From: Anaerolineae bacterium
Lineage (GTDB): Bacteria; Chloroflexota; Anaerolineae; S140-20
Assembly: GCA_027021705.1 (NCBI GenBank)
Contig: JALUTT010000012.1
Location: 1 to 64,000 of the forward strand
DNA: 64,000 nt
Direction of reading: 5' to 3'
Position 1 is the first letter of the stretch, and each line of letters opens with the position of its first letter. Positions 1 through 64,000 of this stretch are shown one piece after another. A program made the position numbers and the translations under genes. The notes beneath the pieces were generated by a model, which searched no databases, was not told the origin of the DNA, and worked only from the letters and a program-made list of their open reading frames with translations.

Positions 1-414
1 GCCGACGTGCGCTGTTTCACCCGCCGATGGTATGAGGGTCCGATGGTCACCCTCCGCGCACGGATGGGCCGGCGTCTGCGCGTCACGGCCGACCATCCCG
101 TTGTCCTGTACGATCCATCGGCCCGGGAATTCCGCATCGTGCTGGCCGAGCAGGTGCGGGCTGGCGATCGCCTGGTCGCGGCCACGGCGCTGCCGGACCT
201 GGAGCAGCCGACCGCTGTAGACCTCATCGAGGCGCTGGCCGAGAGTCCTTTGGAGACTGAGGTCAAAGTGCGTCCTTGGGATGATGCGTTCAATGGGACC
301 TTTGTGACGTTGGAAGTCACCGATGTTGAGGTCGAGCCCTCGGCCGAGTACGTGTACAGCTTGGAGACGACCACGGGGACCCTCTTGACGGCCTCCGGCC
401 TGGTGGCCCACAAC
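1..414 (+). mobile_element. Mini-intein (C-terminal part) inserted immediately before the catalytic Cys
   Basis: Block B-like VTADHP, block F-like YVYSLET, terminal His-Asn at 409-414, Cys+1 at 415-417. No room for an endonuclease domain. Confidence 0.9.
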
Positions 415-981
415 TGCTTCCCCAAAGATGTCAAAGCGCTTGCGTACATGGCCACCGTCCACGGGCAGCACCCCCAGCTTCTCCACGCCGTGATGGAGAT
501 CAACCAGTACCAGCGGCGCAAGGTGATCTTCAAGCTGCGCGAGTTGCTGGGGAGCCTGAAGAACAAGGTGATCGGCCTGCTGGGCCTCTCCTTCAAGCCC
601 AACACCGACGATATGCGGGAGGCTCCCTCCCTCTCCATCGCCCGGATGCTCCTCTCCGAAGGGGCCATCGTCCGGGCCTACGATCCCGTCGCCATGCCCA
701 ACGCCCGCAAGCTGCTCCCCGACGTCCAACTGGCCGACAACCCCTACGAGATGGCCGAGGGGTGCGATGCCCTGGTGGTCGTCACCGACTGGAACGAGTT
801 CAAGCAACTGGATATGGAGCGCATCCGGGACCTGATGCGGCAGCCGGTGCTCATTGACGGGCGAAACATCTACGACCCGGCGCGGATGCGGGCTCTGGGC
901 TTCCGGTATCGGGGCATCGGACGGGGCTACTACACCAATGCGCAGGAAGAGGCCAAGGTGGTCGAGGGGGCTCTGGCTTGA
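1..981 (+). CDS. UDP-glucose/GDP-mannose dehydrogenase family protein (5'-partial), intein-containing
   Basis: After an intein C-terminus (VYSLET...GLVAHN) comes CFPKD with the catalytic Cys, then [13 protein letters not shown] and IDGRNIYD motifs of the UDP-binding domain. ORF is open from the window edge. Confidence 0.93.
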
Positions 982-982
982 A

Positions 983-1045
983 TTACCCTCCCGTAGGTCC
1001 CGCGGTGCCCGGCGACAGCCATAGTAGGGAACCTGCGGGAGGGGC
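983..1045. repeat. MITE/REP-like element, copy 1 (internally shortened)
   Basis: ACCCTCCCGTAGGT...ACCTGCGGGAGGG terminal inverted repeat; internal sequence matches the reverse complement of 26782-26883. Confidence 0.75.
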
Positions 1046-1082
1046 CCTGGGAATTCAGCAACTCAGAGGACGGATAGCACCG

Positions 1083-2375
1083 ATGGATGGAACTCAAATC
1101 GTCAAGAGGCAGTTGGAGAACGGGCTGACGGTGGTGCTCCGGGAGGTCCACCAGGCCCCTGTCGCCAGCTTCTGGCTCTGGTATCGGGTGGGCAGCCGCA
1201 ACGAGGTGCCCGGTCGGACGGGGGCCTCCCACTGGGTGGAGCATATGCTTTTCAAGGGCACGCCCACCTTCCCCAAGGGCACCATAGACCGGCTCATCTC
1301 CCGCGAGGGCGGGGTCTCCAATGCGATGACCTGGATTGACTGGACGACCTACTTCGCCACCTTGCCGGCCGACCGGATCGAACTGGCCCTGCGGATCGAG
1401 GCCGACCGGATGGTCAACGCCCTCTTCGACCCCGACGAGGTGGAGGCGGAGCGGACGGTGATCATCTCCGAGCGGCAGGGGTCGGAGAACAACCCCCGCT
1501 TCCGGCTGGCCGAGGCGATCCAGGCCATCGCCTTCCGGGTGCACCCCTACCACCATATGGTGATCGGCGATATGGCCGACCTGAAGACGATGAGCCGCGA
1601 CGATCTCTACCGGCACTACCGCGCTTACTACGTGCCCAACAACGCCGTGGCCGTGGCGGTGGGGGACTTCGACGGCGAGGCAATGCTGGGGCAGATCGAG
1701 GCCCTCTTCGGCTCCATCCCTCCCGGCCCAGTGCCCCCGCCCCCCCGGCGGGAGGAGCCGCCCCCCGACGGGGAGCGCCGGGTGATCCTCCAGGGTGAGG
1801 GCACCACCGCCTACGTGGACCTCTCCATCCGCGCTCCCCGCGCCCTGGACCCCGACTACTTCCCGATGATCGTGCTGGACGCAGTGATGGTGGGGAGTGG
1901 TGGCCTGGGGATGGGGGGGACCACGACCAACCACACCACCCGCCTCTACCGGAGGCTGGTGGAGGGGGAGCTGGCCACCGCCGTCTACGGGGGCATCACG
2001 CCGACGCTGGACCCCTACCTGGGCGGCTACGGGGCGACGGTGCGGACGGGCCACACGCCCGAGGAGGTGGAGGCGGCCATCTGGGCCGAGATCGAGCGGG
2101 TGAAGCAAGAGCCCATCTCCGAGGAGGAGTTCGCCAAAGCGCTCAAGCAGGCCCGTGCCCAATTCGCCTACTCCAGCGAGAGCGTCACCAGTCAGGCCCG
2201 CTGGTTGGGGTTCGCCGAGATGATGGATTCCTACGAGTGGTTCTTCACCTACCTGGACCGCTTGGCCCAAGTGACCGCCGAGGACGTCCGGCGGGTTGCC
2301 CAGACCTACTTCGACCGGCGCAACCTGATCGTGGGCTGGTACGTACCAGAGGAGAGGAGGGACGATGGCCGATAG
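1083..2375 (+). CDS. M16 (pitrilysin) family zinc peptidase, catalytic subunit
   Basis: LENGL start, HWVEH (HxxEH) motif, YYVPNNA motif. Start taken at ATG 1083. Confidence 0.92.
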   Translation: MDGTQIVKRQLENGLTVVLREVHQAPVASFWLWYRVGSRNEVPGRTGASHWVEHMLFKGTPTFPKGTIDRLISREGGVSNAMTWIDWTTYFATLPADRIELALRIEADRMVNALFDPDEVEAERTVIISERQGSENNPRFRLAEAIQAIAFRVHPYHHMVIGDMADLKTMSRDDLYRHYRAYYVPNNAVAVAVGDFDGEAMLGQIEALFGSIPPGPVPPPPRREEPPPDGERRVILQGEGTTAYVDLSIRAPRALDPDYFPMIVLDAVMVGSGGLGMGGTTTNHTTRLYRRLVEGELATAVYGGITPTLDPYLGGYGATVRTGHTPEEVEAAIWAEIERVKQEPISEEEFAKALKQARAQFAYSSESVTSQARWLGFAEMMDSYEWFFTYLDRLAQVTAEDVRRVAQTYFDRRNLIVGWYVPEERRDDGR

Positions 2376-3651
2376 CTGGCGCTCGCTACCGGGGCCGGAG
2401 AACGTGGCCCGCTACGAACTGGAGAACGGAATCGTCCTGCTGGTCCGCGAGAATGACACCAGCCCCTCCGTGGTGATCACCGGCTCCCTGCTGGTGGGGG
2501 CCGTAGACGAGCCCGCCGAGCAGGCCGGGCTGGCCGCTTTCACGGCGGCCTGCCTGGACCGGGGGACGGAACGCCGCAGCTTCGAGCAGATCTACGAAGA
2601 GGTGGAGTCCATCGGCGCGGCGATCCACGTGGCCGGCGGGGGCCACGTCACCCACTTCGTCGGCAAGAGCTTGGCCGAGGACCTCCCCCGCATCCTGGAC
2701 GTGCTGGCCGACCTGGTGCGCCATCCCACCTTCCCCGAGGAGCAGGTGGAGAAGGTGCGCGGCGAGATCCTGACGGCCCTGGCGGAGCGGGCCAACAACA
2801 CCCAGGCGATGGCCGCCCTCGCCTTCCAGGAGGTCGCTTACCCCCCTGACCACCCCTACAGCCGCAGCGCCCGGGGCTACCCGGAGACGATCCAGCGCCT
2901 CCGGCGAGAGGACCTGGTCCGCTTCTATCGGGAGGGGTACGGCCCTCGGGGGATGATCGTGGCCGTGGTGGGGGCGGTCCAGGCCGAGACGGTGCGGTCT
3001 CAGATCGAGGCGGCCTTCGGCGACTGGGAGGGAGGTGGGTTCCGGCGGGATGGGCTGCCCGAGGCCCCGCCTCCCACCGAGGTCCGGCGCAAGGTGGTCC
3101 CGATGCCCGGCAAGGTCCAGAGCGACATCGTGCTGGGCGTCCCCGGCCCGCCCCGCACCCACCCCGACTTCCTGACGGCCTCGTTGGCCAACACCATCTT
3201 CGGCGTCTTCGGGATGTACGGGCGGCTGGGGCGCAACGTGCGCGACGAGCAGGGGTTGGCCTACTACGCCTTCAGCCGGCTGGACGGCGGGATGGGGCCG
3301 GGGCCTTGGCGGGTGATCGCCGGGGTCCACCCCACCAACGTCCGGCGAACCGTCGAAAGCATCCGACAGGAGATCCGGCGGATGCGCGATGAGCCGATCC
3401 CTGCAGAGGAGCTAGAGGACAACAAAGCCTACATCACCGGCTCCCTCCCCCTGCGGCTGGAGACCAACGAGGGCGTGGCCGGAGCGTTGATCGAGATGGA
3501 GCGCTACGGGCTGGGGCTGGACTACCTGCGCCGCTACCCCGACCTCATCCGCGCCATCACCGCCGAGGAGATCCAACAGGTGGTCCGCCGCTGGCTTGAT
3601 CCCGACGCCTTCGCCCTGGGCATCGCCGGCCCGCCCGAGGAGGCCTCTTAG
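2365..3651 (+). CDS. M16 family peptidase, non-catalytic partner subunit
   Basis: LENG start, no HxxEH, VRDEQGLAY motif; overlaps the previous gene. Confidence 0.9.
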   Translation: MADSWRSLPGPENVARYELENGIVLLVRENDTSPSVVITGSLLVGAVDEPAEQAGLAAFTAACLDRGTERRSFEQIYEEVESIGAAIHVAGGGHVTHFVGKSLAEDLPRILDVLADLVRHPTFPEEQVEKVRGEILTALAERANNTQAMAALAFQEVAYPPDHPYSRSARGYPETIQRLRREDLVRFYREGYGPRGMIVAVVGAVQAETVRSQIEAAFGDWEGGGFRRDGLPEAPPPTEVRRKVVPMPGKVQSDIVLGVPGPPRTHPDFLTASLANTIFGVFGMYGRLGRNVRDEQGLAYYAFSRLDGGMGPGPWRVIAGVHPTNVRRTVESIRQEIRRMRDEPIPAEELEDNKAYITGSLPLRLETNEGVAGALIEMERYGLGLDYLRRYPDLIRAITAEEIQQVVRRWLDPDAFALGIAGPPEEAS

Positions 3652-3712
3652 GCCCCCTTTTGCGCCTTCGCACTTTGGGCTTCCCGGCCATCCCACCTCC
3701 AGGAGCAACGCG

Positions 3713-4501
3713 ATGGTTGAAGAGATGATCACCTTCACCAATGCCGGCCAACGCCTCTACGGGATGCTCCATCGGCCCGACGGCGTCGGCCCCTTCCCCG
3801 CCGTGGCGATGCTCCACGGCTTCACCGGCGATCGCTTCGAGCCCCACCGCCTCTTCGTCAAGACGGCCCGCGACCTGGCAGCCCACGGCATCGCCGCCCT
3901 CCGCTTTGACTTCCGGGGCTCCGGCGAGAGCGAGGGCGACTTCGAGGACGTGACCGTGAGCGGTGAGGTCTCCGACGCCAGGGCTGCGCTGGACTTCCTG
4001 GCCGCCCATCCTGCGGTGGACGCCGACCGGCTGGGGCTGCTGGGCATCAGCCTGGGTGGATGCGTCGCTGCCCTGGTGGCCGGGGACGACGACCGGGTGA
4101 AGGCCCTTGTCCTCTGGTCGGCTGTAGGACACCTGCTGGAAGTGCTGACCGCTCTGGCTCCTCCCGGGGCCGCCGAACAGATGCAGCGCCAGGGCTGGGT
4201 GGACCTGGGCGGATGGAAGCTGGGGATGGGCTTCATCCGCGAGCTCCCCGACCTGGACCCGCTGGGGGCAGCGGCCCGCTACTCGGGGCCGGCCCTCATC
4301 CTCCACGGTGATGCCGACGAGTCGGTGCCCGTCAGCGAGGCCCACGCCTACGCCCGGCGGATGGGGCAGCGGGCTCAAGTCCGCATCATCCCCGGAGCCG
4401 ATCATACCTACAACCGGCTGGACTGGGAGGCCGAGGTGATCCGCCGCAGCCGAGAGTGGCTGGTGGAGCACCTGGTATCTCTTGTTACACCTCACGGGTA
4501 G
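3713..4501 (+). CDS. Alpha/beta hydrolase
   Basis: HGFTG, FDFRGSGES, GISLGG nucleophile elbow, HGDADESV and GADH; AGGAG RBS before ATG 3713. Confidence 0.9.
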   Translation: MVEEMITFTNAGQRLYGMLHRPDGVGPFPAVAMLHGFTGDRFEPHRLFVKTARDLAAHGIAALRFDFRGSGESEGDFEDVTVSGEVSDARAALDFLAAHPAVDADRLGLLGISLGGCVAALVAGDDDRVKALVLWSAVGHLLEVLTALAPPGAAEQMQRQGWVDLGGWKLGMGFIRELPDLDPLGAAARYSGPALILHGDADESVPVSEAHAYARRMGQRAQVRIIPGADHTYNRLDWEAEVIRRSREWLVEHLVSLVTPHG

Positions 4502-4514
4502 GGCGAGGAAGAGT

Positions 4515-4654
4515 TTCGCGGATCGGCTCTGTACGTTTAGGAGCCTTTTCAGCCCCGATGGGCTATCTGAAACACGGTTTCACGTTGGAAACGCGCCTAA
4601 CCTGCGGGAGGGTGAACACGGGAGGACATTCGCGGATCGGCTCTGTACGTTTAG
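4515..4654. repeat. Two perfect 26-bp direct repeats enclosing MITE-like copy 2 (one TIR only)
   Basis: TTCGCGGATCGGCTCTGTACGTTTAG at 4515-4540 and 4629-4654. The sequence at about 4547-4617 is a near-identical reverse complement of about 50087-50157. Confidence 0.85.
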
Positions 4655-4669
4655 TGTGGAGGTGGGCGT

Positions 4670-5881
4670 ATGGAACGACGTTGGAGCACGGGAACCAAAC
4701 GGATCGTCGTCGTGAGCGCGGCGGTGCTCATCTTCCTGGCCTTGAACCGACTGCGGGCGCTGCTGGCTCCCCTCATCATCGCGATGATCCTGGCCTATAT
4801 CCTCAACCCCATCGTGGAGGGGCTGCGGCGGCTCCTGCGCATTCCCCGGACGGCGGCGGCCACCCTCATCTACCTGGCCCTCCTGGCCCTCATCGCCGTG
4901 GGACCGGCTCTGCTCATCCCGCCTTTCATCGCTGCCGTTCAGGGTTTTGCCGGCGACTTCCCCGACCTGGTCGCCCGCTTCGGCGAGCAGTTGGAGCAGC
5001 CCCTGGTCGTCGGCGAGTTCCAACTGGACCTGACCACGGGCTACCGGCAGATTCAGGGCTCCTTGGAAGGGCTCGTCTCCACGGCGGCCCAACAGACCGT
5101 TTCCATCGTCTCCAACGTCGCCTCGGCTCTGTTGTGGTCCATCTTCGTCCTCGTCGCCTCGTTCTACATGGTCAAGGATGCCCCTCACCTGACCCGGTGG
5201 GCTGAGGAGGTCGTGCCCCCTGAGGCCCGCGCCGACTACCGGCGCTTGATGGAGCAGATCGCCGCCACCTGGAACGCCTTCCTGCGTGGTCAGTTGATCC
5301 TCTGCGTCACGATGGGCCTGGTGGTGGGGATCACGATGAGCCTCATCGGCCTGCCCAAAGCCTGGCTCGTCGGTCTGCTCTTCGGCGTGCTGGAGTTTAT
5401 CCCCAACCTGGGGCCGCTCATCGCCTCCATCCCGGCGGTGCTGCTGGCCCTCTTCGAGGGCTCCACCTGGCTCCCCCTCAGCAACCTCTGGTTCACCGTC
5501 TTGGTCATCGGGGTGAACGTGGCCATCCAGCAACTGGAGAACACCATCTTGGTACCCCGCATCATCGGCAGCAGCCTGAACCTGCATCCCCTGGTCGTCC
5601 TCATCGCCGTGCTGGCCGGCTCCCAGGTGGCCGGCATCCTGGGTATCCTCCTGGCCGCTCCTATCGTCGCCACCCTCCGCATCCTGGTCGAGTACGTCTA
5701 TTACCGGTTGCTGGACATGCCCCCCTTCCCAGGGGAGCCGATGGTGACCGAGGGAGCGGCGGTGTCCCTCGGAGGGGGGGAAGAGGCGCTGGGGGATGGG
5801 GCACCGGGGGGTGAGGGGCTGAGGGATGAGGCGATGAGGGATGAGGCACCGAGGGAAGAAGGACCGAGGACCGAGGACTGA
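4670..5881 (+). CDS. AI-2E family transporter
   Basis: LAYILNPIV, FLRGQL, EFIPNLGP, QQLEN..LVPRIIG..LNLHP motifs; multi-pass membrane protein. Confidence 0.9.
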   Translation: MERRWSTGTKRIVVVSAAVLIFLALNRLRALLAPLIIAMILAYILNPIVEGLRRLLRIPRTAAATLIYLALLALIAVGPALLIPPFIAAVQGFAGDFPDLVARFGEQLEQPLVVGEFQLDLTTGYRQIQGSLEGLVSTAAQQTVSIVSNVASALLWSIFVLVASFYMVKDAPHLTRWAEEVVPPEARADYRRLMEQIAATWNAFLRGQLILCVTMGLVVGITMSLIGLPKAWLVGLLFGVLEFIPNLGPLIASIPAVLLALFEGSTWLPLSNLWFTVLVIGVNVAIQQLENTILVPRIIGSSLNLHPLVVLIAVLAGSQVAGILGILLAAPIVATLRILVEYVYYRLLDMPPFPGEPMVTEGAAVSLGGGEEALGDGAPGGEGLRDEAMRDEAPREEGPRTED

Positions 5882-5921
5882 GGACTGAGGACTGAGGACT
5901 GAGGACTGAGGACTGAGGACT
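5800..5921 (+). repeat. Short tandem repeats: 8-mer GAGGGATG-like followed by 7-mer (GAGGACT)n
   Basis: About 8 consecutive GAGGAC[CT] units ending just before the moeA ATG. Confidence 0.9.
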
Positions 5922-5924
5922 AAA

Positions 5925-7160
5925 ATGACCGAGTTCTTCAACGTGATGCCTCCAGCCCAGGCTTTGGAGACCCTTTTTCGGCGGTGGACTGTTGCCGTCC
6001 AGTCGGAGATGGTCCCCACGGCGGAAGCGTTGGGCCGGGTGACGGCGGGGCCGGTGCGCTCCCCCATCTCCCTGCCCGCCTTTCCCCGCAGCACCGTGGA
6101 CGGCTATGCCGTCCGCGCAGCCGACACCGTGGGGGCCAGCGAGGGCCTCCCCGCCTACCTGACCATCGTCGGCGAGGTGCCGATGGGCCAGAGGGCCACG
6201 CTGACCGTTGGCCGAGGACAAGCGGCCATCGTCCACACCGGCGGGATGATCCCTGAGGGGGCCGACGCTGTGGTGATGGTCGAGCGCACCCACCGGCTGG
6301 ACGAGCGAACGCTGGAGGTCTTGCGGGCCGTCGCCGTCGGCGAGAACGTTATCCAGGTGGGCGAAGACGTGCAGGCCGGCGAGGAGATCCTCCCCGCCGG
6401 TCACCGGCTGCGTCCCCAGGACGTGGGAGGGCTCCTGGGTGTCGGCATCACCCAGGTGGCCGTCGCCCGCCGTCCCGTGGTCGCCATCATCGCCACCGGC
6501 GACGAAGTCGTCCCCCCCGACCGGGAACCGGGCCCCGGCCAGGTGCGGGACATCAACAGCTACACCGCCGAAGCGATGGTCCGGCGGGCCGGTGGCATCC
6601 CCCGCCTGATGGGCATCGTCCCCGACGACTTCGAGGCCCTGCTGGAGCGGGCCCGGCAGGGGCTGGCCCAGGCCGACATGCTGGTCCTCTCGGCGGGCAG
6701 TTCCGTCAGCGTGCGGGACATGACCTCGGAGGTGATCAACCGGCTGGGGGCTCCCGGCGTCCTGGTCCACGGGCTCAGCATCCGGCCCGGCAAGCCGACC
6801 ATCCTGGCCCTTTGCGACGGGAAGCCGGTCTTCGGGCTGCCCGGCAACCCCGTCTCGGCGATGGTGGCCTTCGAGTTGGTGGTGACACCCGCACTGTGGC
6901 GGCTGCAAGGGACGACGCCGCCGGAGAAGCGCCGGGTGAAGGCCCGCTTATTGCGCAACCTCTCCTCCGTCGCTGGACGGGAGGACTACGTCCAGGTCCG
7001 GCTGGTGGAGCGGGAAGGAGAGCTCTGGGCCGACCCCATCTTCGGCAAGAGCAACCTCATCTTCACCCTCGTGCGGGCCGATGGCGTCGTCCGGGTTCCC
7101 CTGGACGCCACGGGGATTCCGGCCGGCGAGGAGGTCGAGGTCGTCCTGCACGAGGGCTGA
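5925..7160 (+). CDS. moeA: Molybdopterin molybdotransferase MoeA (gephyrin-like)
   Basis: RSTVDGYAV, TGGMIPEGADAVVMVE, TGDE, PGKP and GLPGNPVS motifs. Confidence 0.93.
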   Translation: MTEFFNVMPPAQALETLFRRWTVAVQSEMVPTAEALGRVTAGPVRSPISLPAFPRSTVDGYAVRAADTVGASEGLPAYLTIVGEVPMGQRATLTVGRGQAAIVHTGGMIPEGADAVVMVERTHRLDERTLEVLRAVAVGENVIQVGEDVQAGEEILPAGHRLRPQDVGGLLGVGITQVAVARRPVVAIIATGDEVVPPDREPGPGQVRDINSYTAEAMVRRAGGIPRLMGIVPDDFEALLERARQGLAQADMLVLSAGSSVSVRDMTSEVINRLGAPGVLVHGLSIRPGKPTILALCDGKPVFGLPGNPVSAMVAFELVVTPALWRLQGTTPPEKRRVKARLLRNLSSVAGREDYVQVRLVEREGELWADPIFGKSNLIFTLVRADGVVRVPLDATGIPAGEEVEVVLHEG

Positions 7161-7191
7161 TAGCGCCCTTTCTGCGAGTGTCCGTTGACCT

Positions 7192-10665: not shown

Positions 10666-10667
10666 CG

Positions 10668-11504: not shown

Positions 11505-11656
11505 CTCTTGTGGCGGGCCTGTGGCAATCGTTGCACCAGTTGTTCCTCTCGTCCACAACCTCGCAGAGCGCGGATGGGGTCGGTAGGCACAGGGATGATT
11601 TTGATAGCCTCGCCATCATCCAGCCAAATCAGGTGATCGCCCTCGGCGATGTGATA
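11505..11656 (-). pseudogene. AbrB/MazE/SpoVT-family antitoxin remnant lacking its N-terminus
   Basis: Translates as YHIAEGDHLIWLDDGEAIKIIPVPTDPIRALRGCGREEQLVQRL; in-frame TGA just upstream and no start codon. Confidence 0.7.
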
Positions 11657-15963: not shown

Positions 15964-16487
15964 GGCCCATTCCCGACTCCTACTGGGTGCGCCCTGGTCG
16001 GTTGCTGGCCGGCGAGTACCCCGGCGCGAAGGAGGAGACCCAGGCCCGCCGGAAGGTGCGGCGGATGTTGGAGGCCGGCGTGACCTTCTTCCTGGACCTC
16101 ACGGAGCCGGGCGAGCTGAAACCCTATCTCCCCTTCCTCCGGGAAGAAGCCCAGGCGATGGGTCTCTCGGTAGAGCATCGGCGGATGCCCATCCGGGACC
16201 TGGGGACGCCAAGCCCGGAGGAGATGGAGCGGATCCTGGACACCATAGACGAGGCCATCGAGGCGGGGCACATCGTCTACGTCCACTGCTGGGGCGGAAC
16301 GGGCCGAACGGGGACGGTGGTAGGGTGCTACCTGGTGCGGCACGGGATGAGCGGTGAGGAGGCGTTGGCAGAGATCGCCCGGCTGCGCCAAGGCACGCCC
16401 GACGGCTGGAAACGGTCGCCGGAGACCTGGCAGCAGCGCCAGATGGTGCTGCGTTGGTCGGAGGTAGAAGCTGGGAAGGAGAGGTGA
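15960..16487 (+). CDS. Dual-specificity/protein-tyrosine phosphatase
   Basis: [10 protein letters not shown] (CX5R), LAGEYP and SPETxQQ; ATGA overlap with cutA. Confidence 0.9.
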
Positions 16488-51127: not shown

Positions 51128-51140
51128 AGGCTGTCCTCTC

Positions 51141-52360: not shown

Positions 52361-52369
52361 GCAGGAATG

Positions 52370-52401: not shown

Positions 52402-52418
52402 GCTCTCCGGGAAGCTCA

Positions 52419-55841: not shown

Positions 55842-55973
55842 TGCTCCTTTTTTCCCTATGCCTTCTCGGACATCTTCCCCTGTACCCAGAATATGGCCTA
55901 TTCTACATCGAACAGTAGGAATTGGTCAAGCGCCGGTGGGCTACATCGGGCGGTGCAAAGCCTGGGGAAAGCC

Positions 55974-56002
55974 GATGCGGGTGGCGTTGCGCCACCCGCA
56001 TC
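55974..56002 (-). terminator. Hairpin downstream of the thioester-domain adhesin gene
   Basis: GATGCGGGTGGCG-TTG-CGCCACCCGCATC, perfect 13-bp stem. Confidence 0.55.
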
Positions 56003-56036
56003 CTCTTTCCACGATTGGCTGAAAGCAATTCTTGGT

Positions 56037-59000
56037 TTAGCGGCCTCCTCCGATCACCAAGGGCAGGTAGACAGCGTAGGAGTAGCCACCACCGGCGGCG
56101 GCATCGGGGTCCAGATAGTCGGGAATGCCGTCTCGGTCGCTATCCTTCAGCCCTTCCTGGCTGTCGGGGATCCCGTCCCCATCGCTATCGTTGTCCAGAT
56201 AGTTGGGGATCCCATCGTCGTCGGCGTCGTTGTCGGTGCACACGGGATCGTTGGCTGTGCAGCCGGCCAACGGGTCGTCGGGACCACTGCTCCACTCCTG
56301 GGCGTCCGACAGCCCGTCGTCGTCGGAGTCGGTGTCCAGGAAGTCGGGGGTTCCATCCCCGTCGCTATCCCGATCCGGGTTGGTGCAGAGGTTGTCCCCA
56401 TCGGCCGGCCGGAGGAGTCCCGCGCTGGAAATGACAGGGGCACAACCCGATTCCACGCTGTCGGGGATGCCGTCCCCGTCGGAGTCCAGGTCCAGGAAGT
56501 TGGGCGTGCCGTCGCCGTCGGCGTCGTCGGCCCCTTCGATGGCATCGGGGATGCCGTCGTCATCGGAGTCCAGGTCCAGGAAGTTGGGCGTGCCGTCACC
56601 ATCGGCGTCCTCGGCCCCCTCGACGGCATCGGGGATGGTGTCGCCGTCGGAGTCGAGGTCAAGGAAGTTGGGGGTGCCGTCGCCGTCGGTGTCACTGGCC
56701 CCCTCAACCGCATCGGGGATGGTGTCGCCGTCGGAGTCGAGGTCAAGGAAGTTGGGCGTGCCGTCACCATCGGCGTCCTCGGCCCCCTCGACGGCATCGG
56801 GGATGGTGTCGCCGTCGGAGTCGGTGTCCAAGAAGTTGGGGGTGAGATCGCCATCGGCGTCGCCCGTCCCCTCAGCGGCGTCGGGAATCCCATCGCCGTC
56901 AGCATCGGTATCCTGGTAGTTGGGGGTACCATCCCCATCGGTATCGCCGTTCCCCTCGTCGGTGTCGGGGATGCCGTCCCCGTCGCTGTCGGCTCCGGCC
57001 TGGATGTCGGGATCCAGGTAGTCAGCCACGCCATCCCCATCGGCATCACCCGTTCCTTCAACACTGTCGGCAACGCCATCGCCGTCGGCGTCGGTGTCCA
57101 GGTAGTTGGGGGTGCCGTCGCTGTCGGCGTCGCCGGTGCCTTCGGTGGCGTCGGGGATACCATCGTTGTCCGAATCGGTGTCCAGTGCGTCTATGGTGCC
57201 GTCGCCATCGCTGTCGGTGGGGCTGGCGGGATCGCCTACCTCGGTGGCGTCGTCAATGCCGTCGCCGTCGGAGTCCCCGCTGTTGGGGTTGGTGCCGATG
57301 GCTGCCTCTTGGCTGTTGGTCAGCCCATCGCCATCCTGGTCCGCATCGGGGCCATCGGTGTCGTCGGCATCCAGGAAGTTGGGGATACCATCGCCATCGG
57401 CATCGCCGGTTCCCTCGACAGCGTCAGGCGTCCCGTCGTTGTCGGCGTCGGTGTCCAGGTAGTTGGGGGTGCCGTCGTTGTCGGCGTCGCCTGCGCCCTC
57501 GGTGCTGTCGGCGATGCCGTCGCCGTCGGAATCGGCGTCCAGGTAGTTGGGCGTCCCGTCGTTGTCGGCGTCGCCCGCGCCCTCGGTGCCGTCGGCGATG
57601 CCGTCACCGTCGGAATCGGTGTCCAGGTAGTTGGGGGTGCCGTCGTTGTCGGCGTCGCCCGTGCCCTCGTCAGCGTCGGCGATGCCGTCGCCGTCGGCGT
57701 CGGTATCCAGGTAGTTGGGGGTGCCGTCGTTGTCGGCGTCGCCGGTGCCCTCGGTGCCGTCGGCGATGCCGTCACCGTCGGCGTCGGTATCCAGGTAGTT
57801 GGGGGTGCCGTCGTTGTCGGCGTCGCCCGTGCCCTCGTCGGCGTCGGCGATGCCGTCGCCGTCGGCGTCGGTGTCCAGGTAGTTGGGGGTGCCGTCGTTG
57901 TCGGCGTCGCCGGTGCCCTCGACAGCGTCAGGCGTCCCGTCGTTGTCGGCGTCGGTATCCAGGTAGTTGGGGGTGCCGTCGTTGTCGGCGTCGCCGGTGC
58001 CCTCGGTGCCGTCGGCGATGCCGTCACCGTCGGCGTCGGTGTCCAGGTAGTTGGGCGTCCCGTCGTTGTCGGCGTCGCCCGCGCCCTCGGTGCTGTCGGC
58101 GATGCCGTCGCCGTCGGCGTCGGTATCCAGGTAGTTGGGGGTGCCGTCGTTGTCGGCGTCGCCGGTGCCCTCGGTGCCGTCGGCGATGCCGTCACCGTCG
58201 GCGTCGGTATCCAGGTAGTTGGGGGTGCCGTCGTTGTCGGCGTCGCCTGTGCCCTCGTCAGCGTCGGCGATGCCGTCACCGTCGGAATCGGTGTCCAGGT
58301 AGTTGGGGGTGCCGTCGTTGTCGGCGTCGCCCGTGCCCTCGTCAGCGTCGGCGATGCCGTCGCCGTCGGCGTCGGTGTCCAGGTAGTTGGGCGTCCCGTC
58401 GTTGTCGGCGTCGCCCGCGCCCTCGGTGCCGTCGGCGATGCCGTCACCGTCGGCGTCGGTATCCAGGTAGTTGGGCGTCCCGTCGTTGTCGGCGTCGCCG
58501 GCGCCCTCGGTGCTGTCGGCGATGCCGTCGCCGTCGGCGTCGGTATCCAGGTAGTTGGGGGTGCCGTCGTTGTCGGCGTCGCCGGTCCCCTCGGTGCCGT
58601 CGGCGATGCCGTCACCGTCGGAATCGGTGTCCAGGTAGTTGGGCGTCCCGTCGTTGTCGGCGTCGCCCGTGCCCTCATCCAGATCGGGGATGCCATCCCC
58701 GTCGGCATCAACGGAGACAACCACCTGATCCTGGGCACTGGCCTGGCCGCCCAACCCGTCGCTGCCGGAGGCCGTCACGGTGAAGGTGATGACGTTCGCC
58801 TGACCGGCTACGGTGCTGCCGCTGCAGGTCATTGTCGCGCCGGGATCCAGCGTCGTGGAGGGGCAGGTGATGGTGAAGCCGGCATCCACGGTGATCTGCT
58901 CCAGCGGGGCGTCACCGGTGTTGGTAATGACCGCGGTGAGGGTCAGTGTCTCCCCGGGATAGGCATGGGCCGGACCGCCAGCCTGGAGATCGAGGGCCGG

Positions 59001-60779
59001 GTGGAGCAGGTCCACCGTGTGCGTGGCGCTGACAGAGGTCGCCTGCCCCAGCAGCGACTCGGTGGCGGTGGCCGTGGCCGTGTTGGGCAAGGGGTCCGGA
59101 GCCTGGGTCGGGATCGCGTAGCTCACGCTGCAGGAGCGAGCCTCGCCGACGGCCAGGCTGCCGGTCGAGCAATCGGCGATCACGCCGCCCAGCAGGGGGT
59201 CGCTGACCTGCACGTTCTGCAGCGGAACGTTGCCGGTGTTGGTGACGGTGAAGTGGTAGGTGATGGTCTCCCCGGCGTGAGCCTGGGCCGGTCCGAGCTT
59301 GCTGAGGGCCAGCGCCGGCTGGGGCCGAAGGTTGCCCAACGCCACCTCTTTAACATCCCCGGAGCCCACCGTCACGGTTCCGGAGATGCCGGTGGTGGCG
59401 TACCAGCCGCTCTGGAGCGTCTCCTGGACGTAGTAGGTGCCGGCGGTTAGGTCTGGCGGATCGCGGTTGGGATCAGAACTGAAGACGACCCGTCCCTGGT
59501 CATCGGTCACCCCCTTCATCCCCACGACGGCGGAACCGTCGTCGCGGAAGAGCTGGAGTTCCCAGCCAGCCAGCGGCGCTTCGCCGGCGTCCCAGGTGCC
59601 GTCCAGATCATCGTCCTGGAAGGTCCGCCCGATGATGACGGGCAGCTTCACCTGGCCGAAGCCAACGGACCGGGTGTCGTTGTTCACCGTGACGGTCTGG
59701 GCTGTGGCTGTGGTGGAGTACCAGCCGCTTTGGAGCACTTCGACGACGGTGTAGGTGCCGTTGAGGCCGCTGAAGGTGACCTGGCCGTTGGCGTCGGTGG
59801 TCTGCTGGGCGATGAAGGCACCATTTCGGTAGAGGCGGATCGTCCAGCCGGCCAGTGCCGGCTCTCCCTCATCGTGGACCCCGTTCATGTTGTAGTCGTC
59901 GAAGCTGAGGGCTGTGATGGAGCCGTTGCCCGTCCAGGTGCCGGTGGCGTAGCCGTAGACCAGGCCGCTGCTCTCCTCACCCAGGACCAGCTTCTGCTTG
60001 TTGGTGTCCACCCCCACAAAGACGGTTCCCACAGGGAGGGAGAGGGTGGCCGAGGCGGTGATGTGGGCGGTCCCCGCCATGCCCAGGCTGAGGGTGAAGG
60101 TCGCCTCTCCGTTGGCATCGGTGGTGACCACATCCGTGGAGAGAGTTCCCTGGCTGGTGGCCAAGGTGACCTGGCGGCCGGCCACCGGCGTCCCACCTTG
60201 GGTGACGGTGACGGTGAAGGTTTGGCTGGCCCCAACGGGGTTGACGGTGCTGGCCGGGGTGATGACGATGTTGGGCGCATCAGCGGCGCAGGCATCGGCC
60301 GGAACCGCCTGGATGATCTCCCAGGCTCGCTGGCCGATGGTGGTGTTGGGGTCCGGCTGGAAGCCATCGGAGAAGTACCAAACGGCCGCCTGACGGGCTG
60401 CCATCTCTTGGTTCCGATTGCTCAGGGTGCCGGGAGCCCCATCGGGCCAGGGTGTGTAGTTGTTGGAACGAGGTGGGTAGTGGATCAGCAGCCACTTGAC
60501 CCGGCAGTCCATCTCCTGGTCGCTGGCCACGAAGGTGTCCCCCACGCCGACATGGTGGAGCATATCGGTGCAGAAGACGGGGACGGTGGGGCCATTGGTC
60601 AGGTCCATGTAGATGGTTCCGCCCCACCCGCTCCACGGACTGCCGTTAAGCGTGCCTTCAACCGTCGCCCCGGGCTTCCACCCGGACACTGTGCCGGTCT
60701 CGCCATCGGCCCAGGCAACGGGCACAGTGAGCAGCAAGAGTATCGTTACGATCGCTAGAGTTCGGTATCCCTTTTTCAT
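56037..60779 (-). CDS. Large surface adhesin: thioester domain, Ig-like/SdrD-B-like domains, TSP3-like Asp-rich repeats, C-terminal VYLPLV motif
   Basis: Signal peptide MKKGY...; VFCTD, RQAAVWYFSD, QKLV; DYNMNG..D.GE..LAGW repeats; VTNTGNVPL; ends AVYLPLVIGGGR. Confidence 0.85.
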   Translation of the reverse strand: MKKGYRTLAIVTILLLLTVPVAWADGETGTVSGWKPGATVEGTLNGSPWSGWGGTIYMDLTNGPTVPVFCTDMLHHVGVGDTFVASDQEMDCRVKWLLIHYPPRSNNYTPWPDGAPGTLSNRNQEMAARQAAVWYFSDGFQPDPNTTIGQRAWEIIQAVPADACAADAPNIVITPASTVNPVGASQTFTVTVTQGGTPVAGRQVTLATSQGTLSTDVVTTDANGEATFTLSLGMAGTAHITASATLSLPVGTVFVGVDTNKQKLVLGEESSGLVYGYATGTWTGNGSITALSFDDYNMNGVHDEGEPALAGWTIRLYRNGAFIAQQTTDANGQVTFSGLNGTYTVVEVLQSGWYSTTATAQTVTVNNDTRSVGFGQVKLPVIIGRTFQDDDLDGTWDAGEAPLAGWELQLFRDDGSAVVGMKGVTDDQGRVVFSSDPNRDPPDLTAGTYYVQETLQSGWYATTGISGTVTVGSGDVKEVALGNLRPQPALALSKLGPAQAHAGETITYHFTVTNTGNVPLQNVQVSDPLLGGVIADCSTGSLAVGEARSCSVSYAIPTQAPDPLPNTATATATESLLGQATSVSATHTVDLLHPALDLQAGGPAHAYPGETLTLTAVITNTGDAPLEQITVDAGFTITCPSTTLDPGATMTCSGSTVAGQANVITFTVTASGSDGLGGQASAQDQVVVSVDADGDGIPDLDEGTGDADNDGTPNYLDTDSDGDGIADGTEGTGDADNDGTPNYLDTDADGDGIADSTEGAGDADNDGTPNYLDTDADGDGIADGTEGAGDADNDGTPNYLDTDADGDGIADADEGTGDADNDGTPNYLDTDSDGDGIADADEGTGDADNDGTPNYLDTDADGDGIADGTEGTGDADNDGTPNYLDTDADGDGIADSTEGAGDADNDGTPNYLDTDADGDGIADGTEGTGDADNDGTPNYLDTDADNDGTPDAVEGTGDADNDGTPNYLDTDADGDGIADADEGTGDADNDGTPNYLDTDADGDGIADGTEGTGDADNDGTPNYLDTDADGDGIADADEGTGDADNDGTPNYLDTDSDGDGIADGTEGAGDADNDGTPNYLDADSDGDGIADSTEGAGDADNDGTPNYLDTDADNDGTPDAVEGTGDADGDGIPNFLDADDTDGPDADQDGDGLTNSQEAAIGTNPNSGDSDGDGIDDATEVGDPASPTDSDGDGTIDALDTDSDNDGIPDATEGTGDADSDGTPNYLDTDADGDGVADSVEGTGDADGDGVADYLDPDIQAGADSDGDGIPDTDEGNGDTDGDGTPNYQDTDADGDGIPDAAEGTGDADGDLTPNFLDTDSDGDTIPDAVEGAEDADGDGTPNFLDLDSDGDTIPDAVEGASDTDGDGTPNFLDLDSDGDTIPDAVEGAEDADGDGTPNFLDLDSDDDGIPDAIEGADDADGDGTPNFLDLDSDGDGIPDSVESGCAPVISSAGLLRPADGDNLCTNPDRDSDGDGTPDFLDTDSDDDGLSDAQEWSSGPDDPLAGCTANDPVCTDNDADDDGIPNYLDNDSDGDGIPDSQEGLKDSDRDGIPDYLDPDAAAGGGYSYAVYLPLVIGGGR
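57405..58705 (-). repeat. About 15 near-identical 84-bp (28-aa) coding tandem repeats
   Basis: Unit DADNDGTPNYLDTDADGDGIADxxEGxG counted in the translation; more diverged units continue to about 56100. Confidence 0.92.
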
Positions 60780-60883
60780 CGCCGTATCACGCTCCCAAAG
60801 TGATTTTCGACAGACCGACTGCCCCCATTCCAATCTATCACTTCCCGTTTTAACCCTCATAAAGGAAATGTTAAAATCAGATT

Positions 60884-60920
60884 AAAAAATCCCCGGCTCG
60901 TGGGAGGGAGAGCCGGGGAT
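60884..60920 (-). terminator. Rho-independent terminator after the DUF4230 gene
   Basis: ATCCCCGGCTC...GAGCCGGGGAT stem followed by a T-run on the minus strand. Confidence 0.8.
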
Positions 60921-60945
60921 GGCGGGCCTGAGCTACTTTCGAGGG

Positions 60946-61584
60946 TCACTCGCTGGTGACGAACTCGACCTGGTCGTAGCCGACGAGCTGAAGCAGCCGG
61001 CGGATCTCCTGCTCGGCGTTGCGCTGGGCCCGCTCCAGGATGCCGTTATCCAGGGCGGTCTGGCGGAAGCTCTCCACGGCCTGCTGGCGGGCCTCGCTCT
61101 CAATGACCTCGTTGGGGGAGACGAGGGGAGCTTCCTTACGTCGGTAGACATAGGTGCAATCGCGATCCTCGAAGAGGAAGACATCGAAGATCTCGGCTGG
61201 CGGCAGGCGGATGATGACGGTGCCGTTGTTGACCCGGACGTCATCCTCGGTCAGCTTCTTGAGGTCCACGCCAGCCGTCACCTTGCCGCAGGCGACCAGG
61301 AGCAGGTAGTCATCGGGCCAGATTTCCAGCAACCCTCGGGGGATGGTGACATCCACAACCGTGGAAAGGAAGTAGGCTTCGGTCTGCAATCGGGCCAGAG
61401 GGCGGAGTTGGTCAATGGCCGGCGGCAGCACGGTCACCGTGGGGGTGGGCTGGGCTATGACCTTTCGGACTCCTTGCGTGATCTGTTTGGGAAGATTCTC
61501 GTAGGTGAACCATACCGAACCGACCAGGACCACGATGGCGAAAAGATTGACGACGCTAGAAATGTTCAGACGAGAGCCACGCAT
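60946..61584 (-). CDS. DUF4230 domain protein
   Basis: N-terminal TM, LARLQT, GKVTAGVDL, IRLPPAEI, GILERAQRNA. Confidence 0.82.
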   Translation of the reverse strand: MRGSRLNISSVVNLFAIVVLVGSVWFTYENLPKQITQGVRKVIAQPTPTVTVLPPAIDQLRPLARLQTEAYFLSTVVDVTIPRGLLEIWPDDYLLLVACGKVTAGVDLKKLTEDDVRVNNGTVIIRLPPAEIFDVFLFEDRDCTYVYRRKEAPLVSPNEVIESEARQQAVESFRQTALDNGILERAQRNAEQEIRRLLQLVGYDQVEFVTSE

Positions 61585-61623
61585 AATTGCCCTCCTTCAA
61601 ATGGGTAGAAACAATGATGGAGA

Positions 61624-61655
61624 GGGTGCGATGCACCTGACGGCGCGTCGCACCC
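61624..61655. repeat. REP-like hairpin
   Basis: GGGTGCGATGCACC-TGAC-GGCGCGTCGCACCC imperfect inverted repeat. Confidence 0.55.
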
Positions 61656-61672
61656 AAGCGTGCCCTTTCTGC

Positions 61673-62152
61673 TCATCCCTTCACCGGACGGAAATGGACG
61701 ATGTCCAGGATGCTACCCCGACGTTCCGCTTTCTCCTTGAAGACCGCCTCCACCCGCATCCCCAGGCGGACCTGGTCCGGCTCCACGTCGCCCAGGAAGT
61801 GGACCAGCCCGCCGTCGGTGCCGTCCAACTGGATGAAGGCGAGGAGGCGGGGCTCCGGCAGGGGCTCCCCGTCCAGGTCCTGGTGGGCGACGGTGTAGGT
61901 GTAGACGTAACCGGTGGTGGGCACCTCTACCCACTCCTCCAGGTGGGCGAAGCACGCTTCGCAGTAGAGGCGAGGCGGCACGTAGATGAGGTCGCATTCC
62001 GGGCAGCGGGTGCCCAGGAATCGTCCATGCTCCTGGATCTCGCGGAAGAAGCGCTCGCCGGCGATGCCCACGGTGTAGCGGCTCTGGATGGGGATTTCGC
62101 CGAGCCAGGCTTTTGTCTGATCCAGCCGGGTAACGCGCTCTATCAGGGCCAT
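61673..62152 (-). CDS. Zn-ribbon/OB-fold (DUF35) protein
   Basis: GTRCPECDLIYVPPRLYCEAC, GYVYTYT, GMRVEAVF. Confidence 0.9.
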   Translation of the reverse strand: MALIERVTRLDQTKAWLGEIPIQSRYTVGIAGERFFREIQEHGRFLGTRCPECDLIYVPPRLYCEACFAHLEEWVEVPTTGYVYTYTVAHQDLDGEPLPEPRLLAFIQLDGTDGGLVHFLGDVEPDQVRLGMRVEAVFKEKAERRGSILDIVHFRPVKG

Positions 62153-62193
62153 CGTACCTCCTTCAGCACTGTTGTACTCGACGGGCGGCGAAC

Positions 62194-62700
62194 CTACGAC
62201 GCTACCGGCTTGAAGTAGGCGATGTCGGTGATCGCACCGGTGCGCTCCTCGGCAGGCTTCCAGACGGCCTGCACCCGCATCCCGATCTTCACCGCCTCCG
62301 GGTCCACCTCGCCCAGGAGGTGCATGATGCCCATCCCCGGCGATGCGCCATCTATGGCGATGACCGCCGGGATCTGGGGCTCCTCCAGGTGCACCATATC
62401 CCAGGTAATGTAGCAGAGGGAGTAGGTGACGACGGTACCGGTGTCCTGGAGGGGCACCCAGGCGTCGGTGGGCAGGAAGCAGTGCTCGCAGACCATCCGG
62501 GGAGGGATCAGCACGCGCCGACAGCCGGGGCAGTGGCGACCGACCAGGCGGCCGGCCTTCAGTTCCGCCAGGAAGCGCCCGATAGCGACGCCGGCGTCCC
62601 AGGCGTAGCGGGCCTTCGGGTCCCAGGTCTCGAAGAGGACACGCCCCTCCTCGAAATCTTTGCTGCGCAGGTACACGGTGTCGTAGACGTGTTCTTTCAT
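62194..62700 (-). CDS. Zn-ribbon/OB-fold (DUF35) protein
   Basis: GRHCPGCRRVLIPPRMVCEHC, GTVVTYS, GMRVQAVW. Confidence 0.9.
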   Translation of the reverse strand: MKEHVYDTVYLRSKDFEEGRVLFETWDPKARYAWDAGVAIGRFLAELKAGRLVGRHCPGCRRVLIPPRMVCEHCFLPTDAWVPLQDTGTVVTYSLCYITWDMVHLEEPQIPAVIAIDGASPGMGIMHLLGEVDPEAVKIGMRVQAVWKPAEERTGAITDIAYFKPVAS

Positions 62701-62719
62701 CGTTTGTCTCCTCGCAATT

Positions 62720-62843
62720 GGTCGCTTGGTCGTTTGGTCGGGTGGTCGTTTGGTCGGGTGGTTGCTTGGTCGGCCGGCCGCTTCCGTCATCGGATCTTCC
62801 GGCTACCCGACCACCGGACCACCAGACCACCCGACCACCCGAC
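62720..62843. repeat. Two oppositely oriented 8-mer tracts, (GGTCGnnT)n and (GACCACCn)n
   Basis: Directly visible; the tracts are mutually complementary. Confidence 0.8.
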
Positions 62844-64000
62844 TAAATTCCCAAGACCACGACGGTTCCGACCTGCATCAGGTCGCCCCAGGCCTGGGCC
62901 ACGCCGCGCCGGGGCTGCCCGGGCACCTGGCGGTCGCCGGCCTCCCCGCGAAGCTGCCAGAAGATCTCGGCCACCTTCATCAGGCCGGCAGCAGCGATGG
63001 GGTTGCCCACACCCAGCAGCCCACCGCTGGGGCAGACGGGCAGGTCTCCATCCCGCTGGGTGATCCCCAGGGCGGTGGCCTCCGGGGCCTTGCCCTTGTC
63101 GAAGAGCATCAGCCCTTCCAGGTGGTGCAGTTCCTTGTAGTCAAAGGGGTCGTAGGGCTCGGCGATGTGGATCTGCTTGCGAGGCTCGGTGATGCCGGCC
63201 ATCTTGTAGGCCATCCGGGCTGCCTCCTCCACGTAGGTCGGGTAGGAAAGGTCCCGATTGGTCCAGTAAGCGGTGTCCAGGCTCCACCCCACCCCTTCGA
63301 CCCAGACGGGCTTGTTGGTGACCCGGCGGGCGACGGACTCGGCAGCCATCACGATGGCCACGGCCCCGTCGCTGATGGGGCTGACGTCCAGCCGCTGCAC
63401 GGGCCAGGCCAGCACCTCCGAGTTGAGCACATCCTCCACGGTGATGTTGGGATCGCCCAGGAGGGCCGCCGGGTGGTCGGCAGCGTTGCGCTTGTTCTTG
63501 ACGGAGACGAGGGCGATGTCCCGCTTGTTCAGCCCGTAACGGCTCATGTAGGCGTTCATCTCCAGCGCGAAGATCCACAGCAGGTTGGGCCCCAAGGGGC
63601 GCTCCAGGGTGTGGTCGAAGATGGTCAGGAACGCGCCCTGGGGGTGAGGCTGGCAGGAGGACATCTTCTCCTCGCAGACGACCAGCACCGTGTCGAAGAG
63701 GCCGCTGGCGACGTGGTACCAGCCCTGGATGACGGAGAAGACGCCGGTGCCCCCGCCCACGTAACCTCGGATGACCGGCTTGCCCCAACCGCCGGCCCCA
63801 TCGGAGAGGTACTCGCTCTTCATATGGACGCCGTCGAAGGCCTCCGGTGCCGTGCCGATGACGACGGCGTCAATGTCGTCGAGGGTCATCTCGCAGGATT
63901 CCAAGGCTTTGCTGGCGGCCTCCCAAGCCAGTTCCTTGGGGGTCTCCTGGGCACGGCGGACGAATTTGGTCATCCCCGCGCCGACGATAGCAACGCGGTC
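62843..64000 (-). CDS. Thiolase-superfamily (SCP2-like) protein, 5'-partial
   Basis: RVAIVGAGMTKF, VSVKN, SPISDGA, EPYDPF, CPSGGLL; reading frame open to the window edge. Confidence 0.9.
   Translation of the reverse strand, partial: DRVAIVGAGMTKFVRRAQETPKELAWEAASKALESCEMTLDDIDAVVIGTAPEAFDGVHMKSEYLSDGAGGWGKPVIRGYVGGGTGVFSVIQGWYHVASGLFDTVLVVCEEKMSSCQPHPQGAFLTIFDHTLERPLGPNLLWIFALEMNAYMSRYGLNKRDIALVSVKNKRNAADHPAALLGDPNITVEDVLNSEVLAWPVQRLDVSPISDGAVAIVMAAESVARRVTNKPVWVEGVGWSLDTAYWTNRDLSYPTYVEEAARMAYKMAGITEPRKQIHIAEPYDPFDYKELHHLEGLMLFDKGKAPEATALGITQRDGDLPVCPSGGLLGVGNPIAAAGLMKVAEIFWQLRGEAGDRQVPGQPRRGVAQAWGDLMQVGTVVVLGI

Follow-up and report, generated by a model that had tools for sequence, protein, structure and literature searches.

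AccI of Acinetobacter, the type enzyme of the restriction endonuclease family PF09545 (RE_AccI), cuts GTMKAC according to its Pfam description, and the sites of SalI (GTCGAC) and ClaI (ATCGAT), both of which are sensitive to adenine methylation, are the two true palindromes contained in the degenerate hexamer RTCGAY. RTCGAY itself is the recorded specificity of M.Bbr28III from Bifidobacterium breve, confirmed by bisulfite sequencing (bioRxiv 10.1101/2024.07.15.603628). In two further papers, RT(m5C)GAY, with m5C standing for 5-methylcytosine, is the most abundant B. breve motif by methylated sites (PMC5829577), and RTCGAY is given as a restriction site to avoid in B. breve strain UCC2003 (PMC12592239). 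Our full-text literature search for RTCGAY and its N6-methyladenine (m6A) spellings, with supplements and REBASE outside the search, returned only Bifidobacterium m5C-type systems. Literature searches for the AccI family, PF09545 and M.AccI returned nothing relevant, and those combining AccI with GTMKAC retrieved cloning or marker papers only. It has also been reported in a survey by Rusinov et al. (2015) that orthodox Type II systems cause avoidance of their sites which grows with residence time, that avoidance without a system is the trace of a loss, and that a system without avoidance suggests recent arrival (PMC4687349). Here we analysed a window of 64,000 nucleotides (positions 1-64000 of contig C12 in the Anaerolineae assembly G000), from which RTCGAY is absent, together with a two-gene cassette on contig C22 of the same assembly which encodes an AccI-family endonuclease and a predicted adenine methyltransferase, and we consider it likely that this cassette, with a specificity for RTCGAY suggested by word statistics, is the agent of the purge. 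Host avoidance of its own Type II target is a textbook phenomenon, and what is new is the specificity call for an uncharacterised and widespread branch of enzymes. An earlier note on this DNA knew of no enzyme with RTCGAY specificity, a statement which the Bifidobacterium record makes out of date.

Assembly G000 comprises 5,190,633 bases in 183 contigs with 66% GC, and its completeness of 94.9% (contamination 4.5%) limits every gene absence given below accordingly. Expected word counts were calculated with order-4, order-3 and order-1 Markov models of sequence composition, and the whole-genome expectations for RTCGAY are the sums of the per-word expectations. The features of the window to which we refer are as follows.

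Positions 1..64000, no strand: RTCGAY-free stretch, 0 sites among 205 NTCGAN, 34-75 expected.
Positions 853..858, plus strand: ATTGAC, Ile-Asp written as ATT-GAC and not ATC-GAC, read at the coordinate; likewise at 1335, 27598, 28030, 28829 and 29426.
Positions 1284..1289, plus strand: ATAGAC, Ile-Asp written with the rare codon ATA, read at the coordinate; likewise at 16245.

The earlier note had claimed that RTCGAY is missing from the window, that the three other flank classes are present, and that Ile-Asp is written with ATT or ATA at eight positions, and all of this was borne out. The 205 NTCGAN sites divide into 96 RTCGAR, 72 YTCGAY, 37 YTCGAR and 0 RTCGAY, against 34.4 (order-4), 75.4 (order-3) or 65.0 (order-1) RTCGAY sites expected from the window's own composition, and all eight coordinates are correct. 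When we extended the count to the whole genome, as the note had proposed for all hexamers, only 135 RTCGAY sites were observed (80 ATCGAC/GTCGAT, 31 ATCGAT and 24 GTCGAC), against about 2,970 (order-4), 5,450 (order-3) or 4,690 (order-1) expected. The RTCGAY hexamers occupy four of the five lowest ranks by observed/expected ratio (O/E) among the 4,096 hexamers, the fifth being ACGCGT, and the O/E of all four words is 0.014-0.055, far below Markov expectation. These results confirm that the depletion is real and extreme, with about 97% of the sites removed genome-wide. Since the non-palindromic ATCGAC/GTCGAT (80 sites, O/E 0.03-0.055) is depleted as much as ATCGAT and GTCGAC, a single degenerate specificity is indicated rather than separate SalI-like and ClaI-like activities, which together would have spared ATCGAC/GTCGAT.

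A purge of this kind might also arise from translational codon-pair bias or dipeptide avoidance without any selection on the DNA word, and we compared codon contexts in 2,318 crude open reading frames (ORFs) with high GC content at third codon positions (GC3), covering 66% of the G000 genome. In the first frame, the observed numbers against those expected from independent codon use were 28/1,055 for ATC-GAC, 3/345 for ATC-GAT, 9/1,524 for GTC-GAC and 9/498 for GTC-GAT. In the second frame, TCG made up 0.7% of serine codons (12 cases) in the R_AY context compared with 7.5-26% in the seven other contexts, and in the third frame CGA made up 0.1% of arginine codons (3 cases) in the RT_Y context compared with 6-12% elsewhere. 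The pairs one base away were normal, with 2422/2426 for ATC-GAG (1.00), 1.11 for ATC-GAA, 1639/1405 for TTC-GAC (1.17) and 1942/2357 for GTC-GAG (0.82), so the depletion is not shared by neighbours such as ATCGAG; a shared depletion was what the earlier note had named as evidence against its claim. In the proteins, Ile-Asp falls somewhat short of expectation as a dipeptide (O/E 0.645), as the codon-pair explanation would have it, but Asp-Ile is low too (0.737), which makes the Ile-Asp deficit unspecific, and Val-Asp stands at expectation (1.007) in spite of the near absence of GTC-GAC. Since all three frames avoid RTCGAY and the neighbours are normal, the purge acts on the DNA word and not on translation; the avoidance is independent of reading frame, and we rejected codon-pair bias on this test as having practically no probability.

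The earlier note had also read the footprint as m5C methylation followed by C-to-T decay, in which a methyltransferase would mark RT(m5C)GAY and spontaneous deamination would turn the sites into RTTGAY/RTCAAY. The known RTCGAY methyltransferases of B. breve are of the m5C type, and ATT-GAC is indeed over-used for Ile-Asp by 9.57-fold (1020/106.6), with an O/E of 1.80 for ATTGAC genome-wide. The replacement spectrum tells against decay. ATA-GAC, which needs a C-to-A change, rises equally (9.80-fold, 313/31.9), so that Ile-Asp is rewritten in proportion to background codon use, and the 1.80 of ATTGAC is in line with the genome-wide values of ATAGAC (1.23) and GTGGAC (1.61). For Val-Asp, GTG-GAC and GTA-GAC increase 2.04-fold and 2.29-fold, whereas the deamination product GTT-GAC is found at only 0.78 times its expectation. 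In the second frame (R-TCG-AY) the substitutes are TCC or AGC, and TCA, the product of bottom-strand deamination, stays at 3.3% without enrichment in the R_AY context. The excess of RTTGAY words that the note had proposed to look for is not general, as GTTGAC (1.09), GTTGAT (0.91) and ATTGAT (0.63) show. Neither a C5 methyltransferase (PF00145) nor a Vsr gene was found in the G000 assembly, and contig C12 has no match to any DNA methyltransferase, which agrees with the note's statement that the window holds no cytosine methyltransferase. In B. breve, RT(m5C)GAY is the motif with the most methylated sites, which does not suggest a purge there (PMC5829577). We conclude that the replacement codons follow ordinary codon preference and that the footprint is selective, reflecting restriction avoidance, and not mutational; decay of methylated cytosine was rejected on the codon-replacement spectrum and the gene searches, and we regard it as very improbable. 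The note's other proposal, which traces the depletion to a restriction-modification system that recognises RTCGAY, is supported.

The candidate for such a system in G000 is an orthodox Type II cassette of two overlapping genes, which lies outside the window and looks intact.

G000:C22:12146-13189, plus strand: AccI-family endonuclease of 348 residues with a GTG start (PF09545 RE_AccI).
G000:C22:13189-15342, plus strand: gamma-class methyltransferase of 718 residues (PF02384, PF07669, NPPY motif).

The stop codon of the endonuclease overlaps the start codon of the methyltransferase (ATGA). The endonuclease matches PF09545 with an E-value of 1.5e-15 and 57.5 bits (cut-off 22) over profile positions 35-142 of 366, and about 2,275 homologs are detectable, with the PF09545 label on all 120 among the matches listed; the few named ones are called 'AccI family restriction endonuclease' and come from metagenome-assembled genomes (MAGs) of Anaerolineae, Chloroflexota and Binatia. 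NCBIfam contains no family for the endonuclease and gave sub-threshold matches only for the methyltransferase. The alignment shows no variation at residues P107-D108 and E152-x-E154, and PD..ExE is kept in 81/83 homologs, from which we infer that these residues are catalytic. For an AlphaFold model from a 22-sequence alignment (predicted local distance difference test score 83.9, predicted template modelling score 0.80), a wider structural aligner returned PD-(D/E)XK nucleases, with Z 10.5 for D212 (root mean square deviation 4.1, 152 residues aligned), 8.3-9.1 for Hjc resolvases, 7.6 for I-Ssp6803I and 4-7 for several restriction enzymes (NhoI 7.2, BsaWI 6.1, DpnI, MspI and AgeI 5.2). A Foldseek search of the model against the PDB gave nothing at E <= 0.001 (best Cfr10I, E 0.038), and the sequence profile gave nothing meaningful among PDB sequences (best E 0.067, a peptidoglycan-binding protein). 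The model places the endonuclease in the PD-(D/E)XK fold. In the methyltransferase, motif I (DPAFGSG, residue 176) lies ahead of motif IV (NPPY, residue 288), which is the gamma-class adenine arrangement; NPPY is present in 62/62 homologs spanning the motif, and the PDB sequences that match it, among them 7lni and 8w0p, are methyltransferases specific for adenine. The motif and the family matches thus predict an N6-adenine type enzyme.

In order to see whether RTCGAY depletion travels with the cassette, we collected 83 endonuclease loci, 3 of them from species genomes and 80 from metagenomes and including four near-duplicate pairs, with endonuclease identities of 41-77% and DNA GC of 31-65%. 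A methyltransferase homolog lies directly downstream of the endonuclease in 61/61 loci with at least 1.5 kilobases (kb) of downstream sequence, across the same range of GC, and gene order thus marks the cassette as a conserved mobile unit. The loci were divided by endonuclease identity into clades A (68-77%), B (53-61%) and C (41-49%) and a further 67% lineage, and the ranking, with order-3 expectations calculated for each locus, took in 330-352 palindromic patterns, which were either non-degenerate or carried a single degenerate position in each half. Around the homologs, RTCGAY ranked 1st in clade A (7/80.4), 2nd in clade B (17/64.7) and 1st in clade C (124/383.9); with the order-1 model it ranked 8th, 5th and 3rd, respectively. 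Inside the cassettes alone it ranked 1st in all three clades (5/24.6, 3/17.6 and 19/76.5); single cassettes in loci with unpurged flanks have 1-5 sites expected each and were tested pooled by clade. The mirror control YTCGAR was normal around the homologs (O/E 0.86-1.07). When flanks were called purged at an RTCGAY O/E of 0.25 or below, counting only loci with at least 5 sites expected, the host flanks outside the cassette were purged in 14/19 non-redundant loci. These results show that the cassette is associated with RTCGAY depletion elsewhere, in three of the four clades.

The C22 enzyme resembles AccI in that it belongs to PF09545 and in that GTCGAC is a member of both GTMKAC and RTCGAY. 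It differs in that G000 shows no avoidance of the remaining GTMKAC words (O/E 1.29 for GTAGAC/GTCTAC, 0.98-1.5 for GTATAC), in that ATCGAT and ATCGAC, which lie outside AccI's site, are purged, and in that only the stretch of the profile given above is aligned. Around the homologs, the O/E of RTCGAY was 0.09, 0.26 and 0.32 in clades A, B and C, compared with 0.93, 0.77 and 0.61 for GTMKAC, and word statistics around the homologs and in G000 thus do not bear out GTMKAC as the site of C22-type enzymes. With the RTCGAY systems of B. breve, the recognition word is the same, but the described B. breve methyltransferases are of the C5-cytosine type, whereas the partner in G000 carries the adenine-type NPPY motif and no PF00145 protein was found; the abundance of RT(m5C)GAY in B. 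breve also contrasts with the purge in G000 (PMC5829577).

We then examined 40 relatives of the same class (G001-G040), each represented by no more than 20 kb of its contig 1 (L115-L154), and searched all 41 genomes including G000 for the endonuclease with the single protein, the Pfam model and the family alignment. The family was found only in G000, in G039 (intact, 303-residue frame) and, as a remnant, in G028.

G028:C17:316-2583 (L158): decayed cassette, methyltransferase ORF of 755 residues, 58% identical to that of G000.

At its start the ORF of G028 retains the final 23 endonuclease codons, while the rest of the endonuclease is gone; the system has thus decayed in G028 and its footprint persists. 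The O/E of RTCGAY is 0.05 in G039 and 0.04 in G028, and all 3/3 class genomes with a cassette or remnant are purged. In the 39 relatives without an endonuclease match, pooled, RTCGAY has an O/E of 0.68 and ranks 23 of 352. The distribution is bimodal among the 32 testable cassette-free relatives, with ten at O/E 0.00-0.18 and about twenty at 0.55-1.22. In the samples of G004, G014, G015 and G036 even the core TCGA is nearly missing, which points to pressure of a TaqI-like kind.

Based on these observations, we suggest that the C22 cassette, with its AccI-family endonuclease, adenine-type methyltransferase and probable RTCGAY specificity, is the most likely agent of the purge, and several points weigh against this. 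To our knowledge no member of the C22 endonuclease clade has a measured site, and AccI, the type enzyme, cuts GTMKAC; we infer the RTCGAY specificity of the C22 enzyme from word statistics and co-occurrence only. Ten relatives (G006, G009, G011, G022, G027, G029, G031, G035, G038 and G040) are equally purged without a cassette, and the cassette is too rare among the 40 relatives (2 besides G000) to explain most purged genomes; purging in the class therefore mostly occurs without this cassette, and its co-occurrence with the purge in G000 could be partly coincidental. Purged flanks in 14/19 homolog loci against 10/32 cassette-free relatives gave p 0.004 (Fisher) and 0.0007 (Mann-Whitney), values which are uncorrected for relatedness and overstated because the homolog-bearing metagenome contigs may be phylogenetically clustered. 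In the 67%-identity lineage (L033, L043 and L044, a Latescibacterota MAG with matching metagenome contigs) plus L054, RTCGAY is not depleted, either in the flanks (22/23.2) or in the cassette (16/21.9), for which recent transfer, inactivity and changed specificity are candidate explanations, and the flanks of two clade C loci, L076 and L095, are also unpurged. Within G000, the GC3 of the cassette is 0.72-0.73, compared with about 0.85-0.9 in typical native genes, and one ATCGAC lies inside the methyltransferase gene, which fits a later arrival, one less easily reconciled with a near-complete purge. In an insertion test, the gene upstream of the cassette was not adjacent to mutS in G001-G003.

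Several of these points fit a purge left by another RTCGAY-specific system, now lost, unassembled or of an unrecognised family, in which case the C22 cassette would have come later or independently and may have been tolerated because it met a genome in which no sites were left. Only G031 among the ten purged cassette-free relatives has any C5 methyltransferase, so a Bifidobacterium-type system does not explain the purge of the other nine, and these ten genomes possibly reflect lost systems or another family. G001, from the same family as G000, lacks the cassette and shows a partial depletion (7/24.9); in G000 itself the cassette is marked by its low GC3 and its own site; the assembly, at 94.9% completeness, is broken into 183 contigs; and avoidance in the absence of a system, as a trace of loss, is reported in the published survey (PMC4687349). 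A lost system would leave unexplained why RTCGAY takes the top rank inside family cassettes from unrelated DNA of 31-65% GC and why all three class genomes with a cassette or remnant are purged, and the four other beta-class methyltransferases of G000, described below, do not track the depletion. We therefore consider such a vanished system unlikely, though far from negligible.

The C22 cassette could have produced the purge through long selection of the lineage against its own restriction target. The endonuclease would cut unmethylated RTCGAY, and sites in the host would be shielded by the methyltransferase, presumably through modification to RTCG(m6A)Y. If methylation lapses now and then, or if the cassette is lost and later regained, each site might become slightly self-toxic, so that self-restriction would be the selective force and sites would be lost one by one through synonymous and near-neutral changes following ordinary codon preference. 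The outcome is long-resident DNA purged by about 97%, with survivors mainly in recent lower-GC DNA and phage contigs. As in the survey of Rusinov et al. (PMC4687349), a palindromic site is strongly under-represented in G000, which encodes its endonuclease and methyltransferase as separate proteins; lost systems have their counterparts in G028 and possibly in the ten purged relatives, and the 67% lineage corresponds to a recent arrival. The degree of avoidance in G000 is extreme in comparison (O/E about 0.03), and the specificity of an uncharacterised clade is here read from avoidance.

We lean, with only modest confidence, towards a broader reading. In it, the uncultured AccI-family branch, with its roughly 2,275 homologs and its constant NPPY adenine methyltransferase, may be an RTCGAY-specific Type IIP group, a second solution for this word that uses m6A and not m5C, which is gained and lost in turn by Chloroflexota and other phyla and leaves near-total purges that persist after the genes are gone; of the sampled class, about a third is purged, mostly with no system left, four more samples are almost free of TCGA, and a resident phage would share the host's older avoidances and not that of RTCGAY. 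G000 is one of the cleanest cases of such avoidance: the 64 kb contain no site, about 97% of the sites are gone from the genome, and the rewriting can be seen in the codon pairs for Ile-Asp and Val-Asp. The specificity call for the uncharacterised AccI branch is RTCGAY, probably with m6A; if confirmed, it would give a restriction enzyme with a specificity documented, in the searched literature, only for m5C-type Bifidobacterium systems. The genomes also suggest a natural life-cycle series, from a cassette present without a purge (67% lineage), through intact and purged (G000, G039) and endonuclease deleted with the methyltransferase kept and the genome still purged (G028), to purged with nothing left (ten relatives).

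The surviving sites are unevenly distributed. Their density is 0.017/kb on contigs of at least 30 kb, 0.158/kb on contigs of 3-10 kb and 0.346/kb on those below 3 kb. On contigs of at least 10 kb, the 76 survivors lie in a median local GC of 0.611 compared with 0.664 for random windows, 55% of them lie in windows below 0.62 GC compared with 10% of random windows, and 17 adjacent pairs are less than 5 kb apart where 5.7 are expected. Two contigs look like phage (loci L172 and L173).

C91 1-9311 (9.3 kb): phage-like contig with a tail protein and baseplate hub, 20 RTCGAY sites.
C159 1-5742 (5.7 kb): phage-like contig with a large terminase, 8 RTCGAY sites.

Together they hold 28 of the 135 survivors of the genome, against 29 expected, so that RTCGAY is not depleted on them. 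Like the host, they avoid CAGCTG (0/4.8), ACGCGT (1/5.2-7.4) and CGTACG (2/4.8-8.3), and they could belong to a wider-family phage unadapted to the RTCGAY system, to a methylation-protected prophage, or to mis-binned contigs. Since the survivors are of low GC, clustered and found on phage contigs, they mainly mark recently arrived or foreign DNA, and in this assembly a surviving RTCGAY site thus flags, at no extra cost, DNA that was acquired recently or a contig that is mis-binned or belongs to a phage.

Other strongly avoided palindromes of G000 are ACGCGT (19 sites), CGTACG (58), CAGCTG (207), CCGCGG and CTCGAG, and the first three are purged in the family relative G001 as well. CAGCTG is GTCGAC reversed and, being avoided here too, is useless as a control word.

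Family searches revealed many N6/N4-type methyltransferases in G000 and none on C12, and 113 ORFs around twelve methyltransferase-type loci were scanned against Pfam. Four other beta-class methyltransferases do not track RTCGAY depletion and were rejected as candidates. The C80 enzyme, which lies beside a protein with an Mrr-type nuclease domain, has 70-76% identical orthologs in the unpurged G013 and G019 (O/E 0.88 and 0.94), the orphan C28 enzyme has 73% identical orthologs in the unpurged G005 and G012 (0.93 and 0.76), the C83 enzyme has a 53% identical homolog in the unpurged G033 (0.79), and the C99 enzyme has 51-62% identical homologs in the unpurged G016, G018 and G024 (0.56-0.80) and also in the purged G040. 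The C80 gene (C80:18139-20600; L018:5637-8119) has orthologs in four relatives, of which three are low in CAGCTG genome-wide (180, 36 and 32 sites); the fourth, G019, has 736 sites, and its 20-kb sample shows no depletion (9/10.9); low CAGCTG is also found in many genomes without a C80 ortholog.

On C77, at about 100.6-102.9 kb (L171:3666-5857), an endonuclease of the NgoMIV family (PF09015, E 4e-101) comes after an N6/N4-type methyltransferase, a pair that we rejected as the RTCGAY enzyme on the grounds of the wrong family of sites. GCCGGC is abundant in G000 despite this pair (11,051 sites, O/E about 1-2), and TCCGGA is depleted (393 sites, O/E 0.16-0.28), so that the C77 system is either a recent arrival or has a specificity that differs within the family. 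Two defence islands were also observed, one at C87:5000-17500 (L023) with a DUF1156 methyltransferase, DUF499, DUF7680 and an SNF2-type helicase, and one on C139 (L019) with an 887-residue N6/N4 methyltransferase, an AAA/SMC-like ATPase and a Schlafen/AlbA_2 protein. Fused Type IIG-like enzymes were rejected as candidates as well, as the published survey reports no avoidance for such types (PMC4687349). They are encoded on C19 (1,178 residues) and C181 (1,128 residues), the latter beside a low-GC stretch with five RTCGAY sites.

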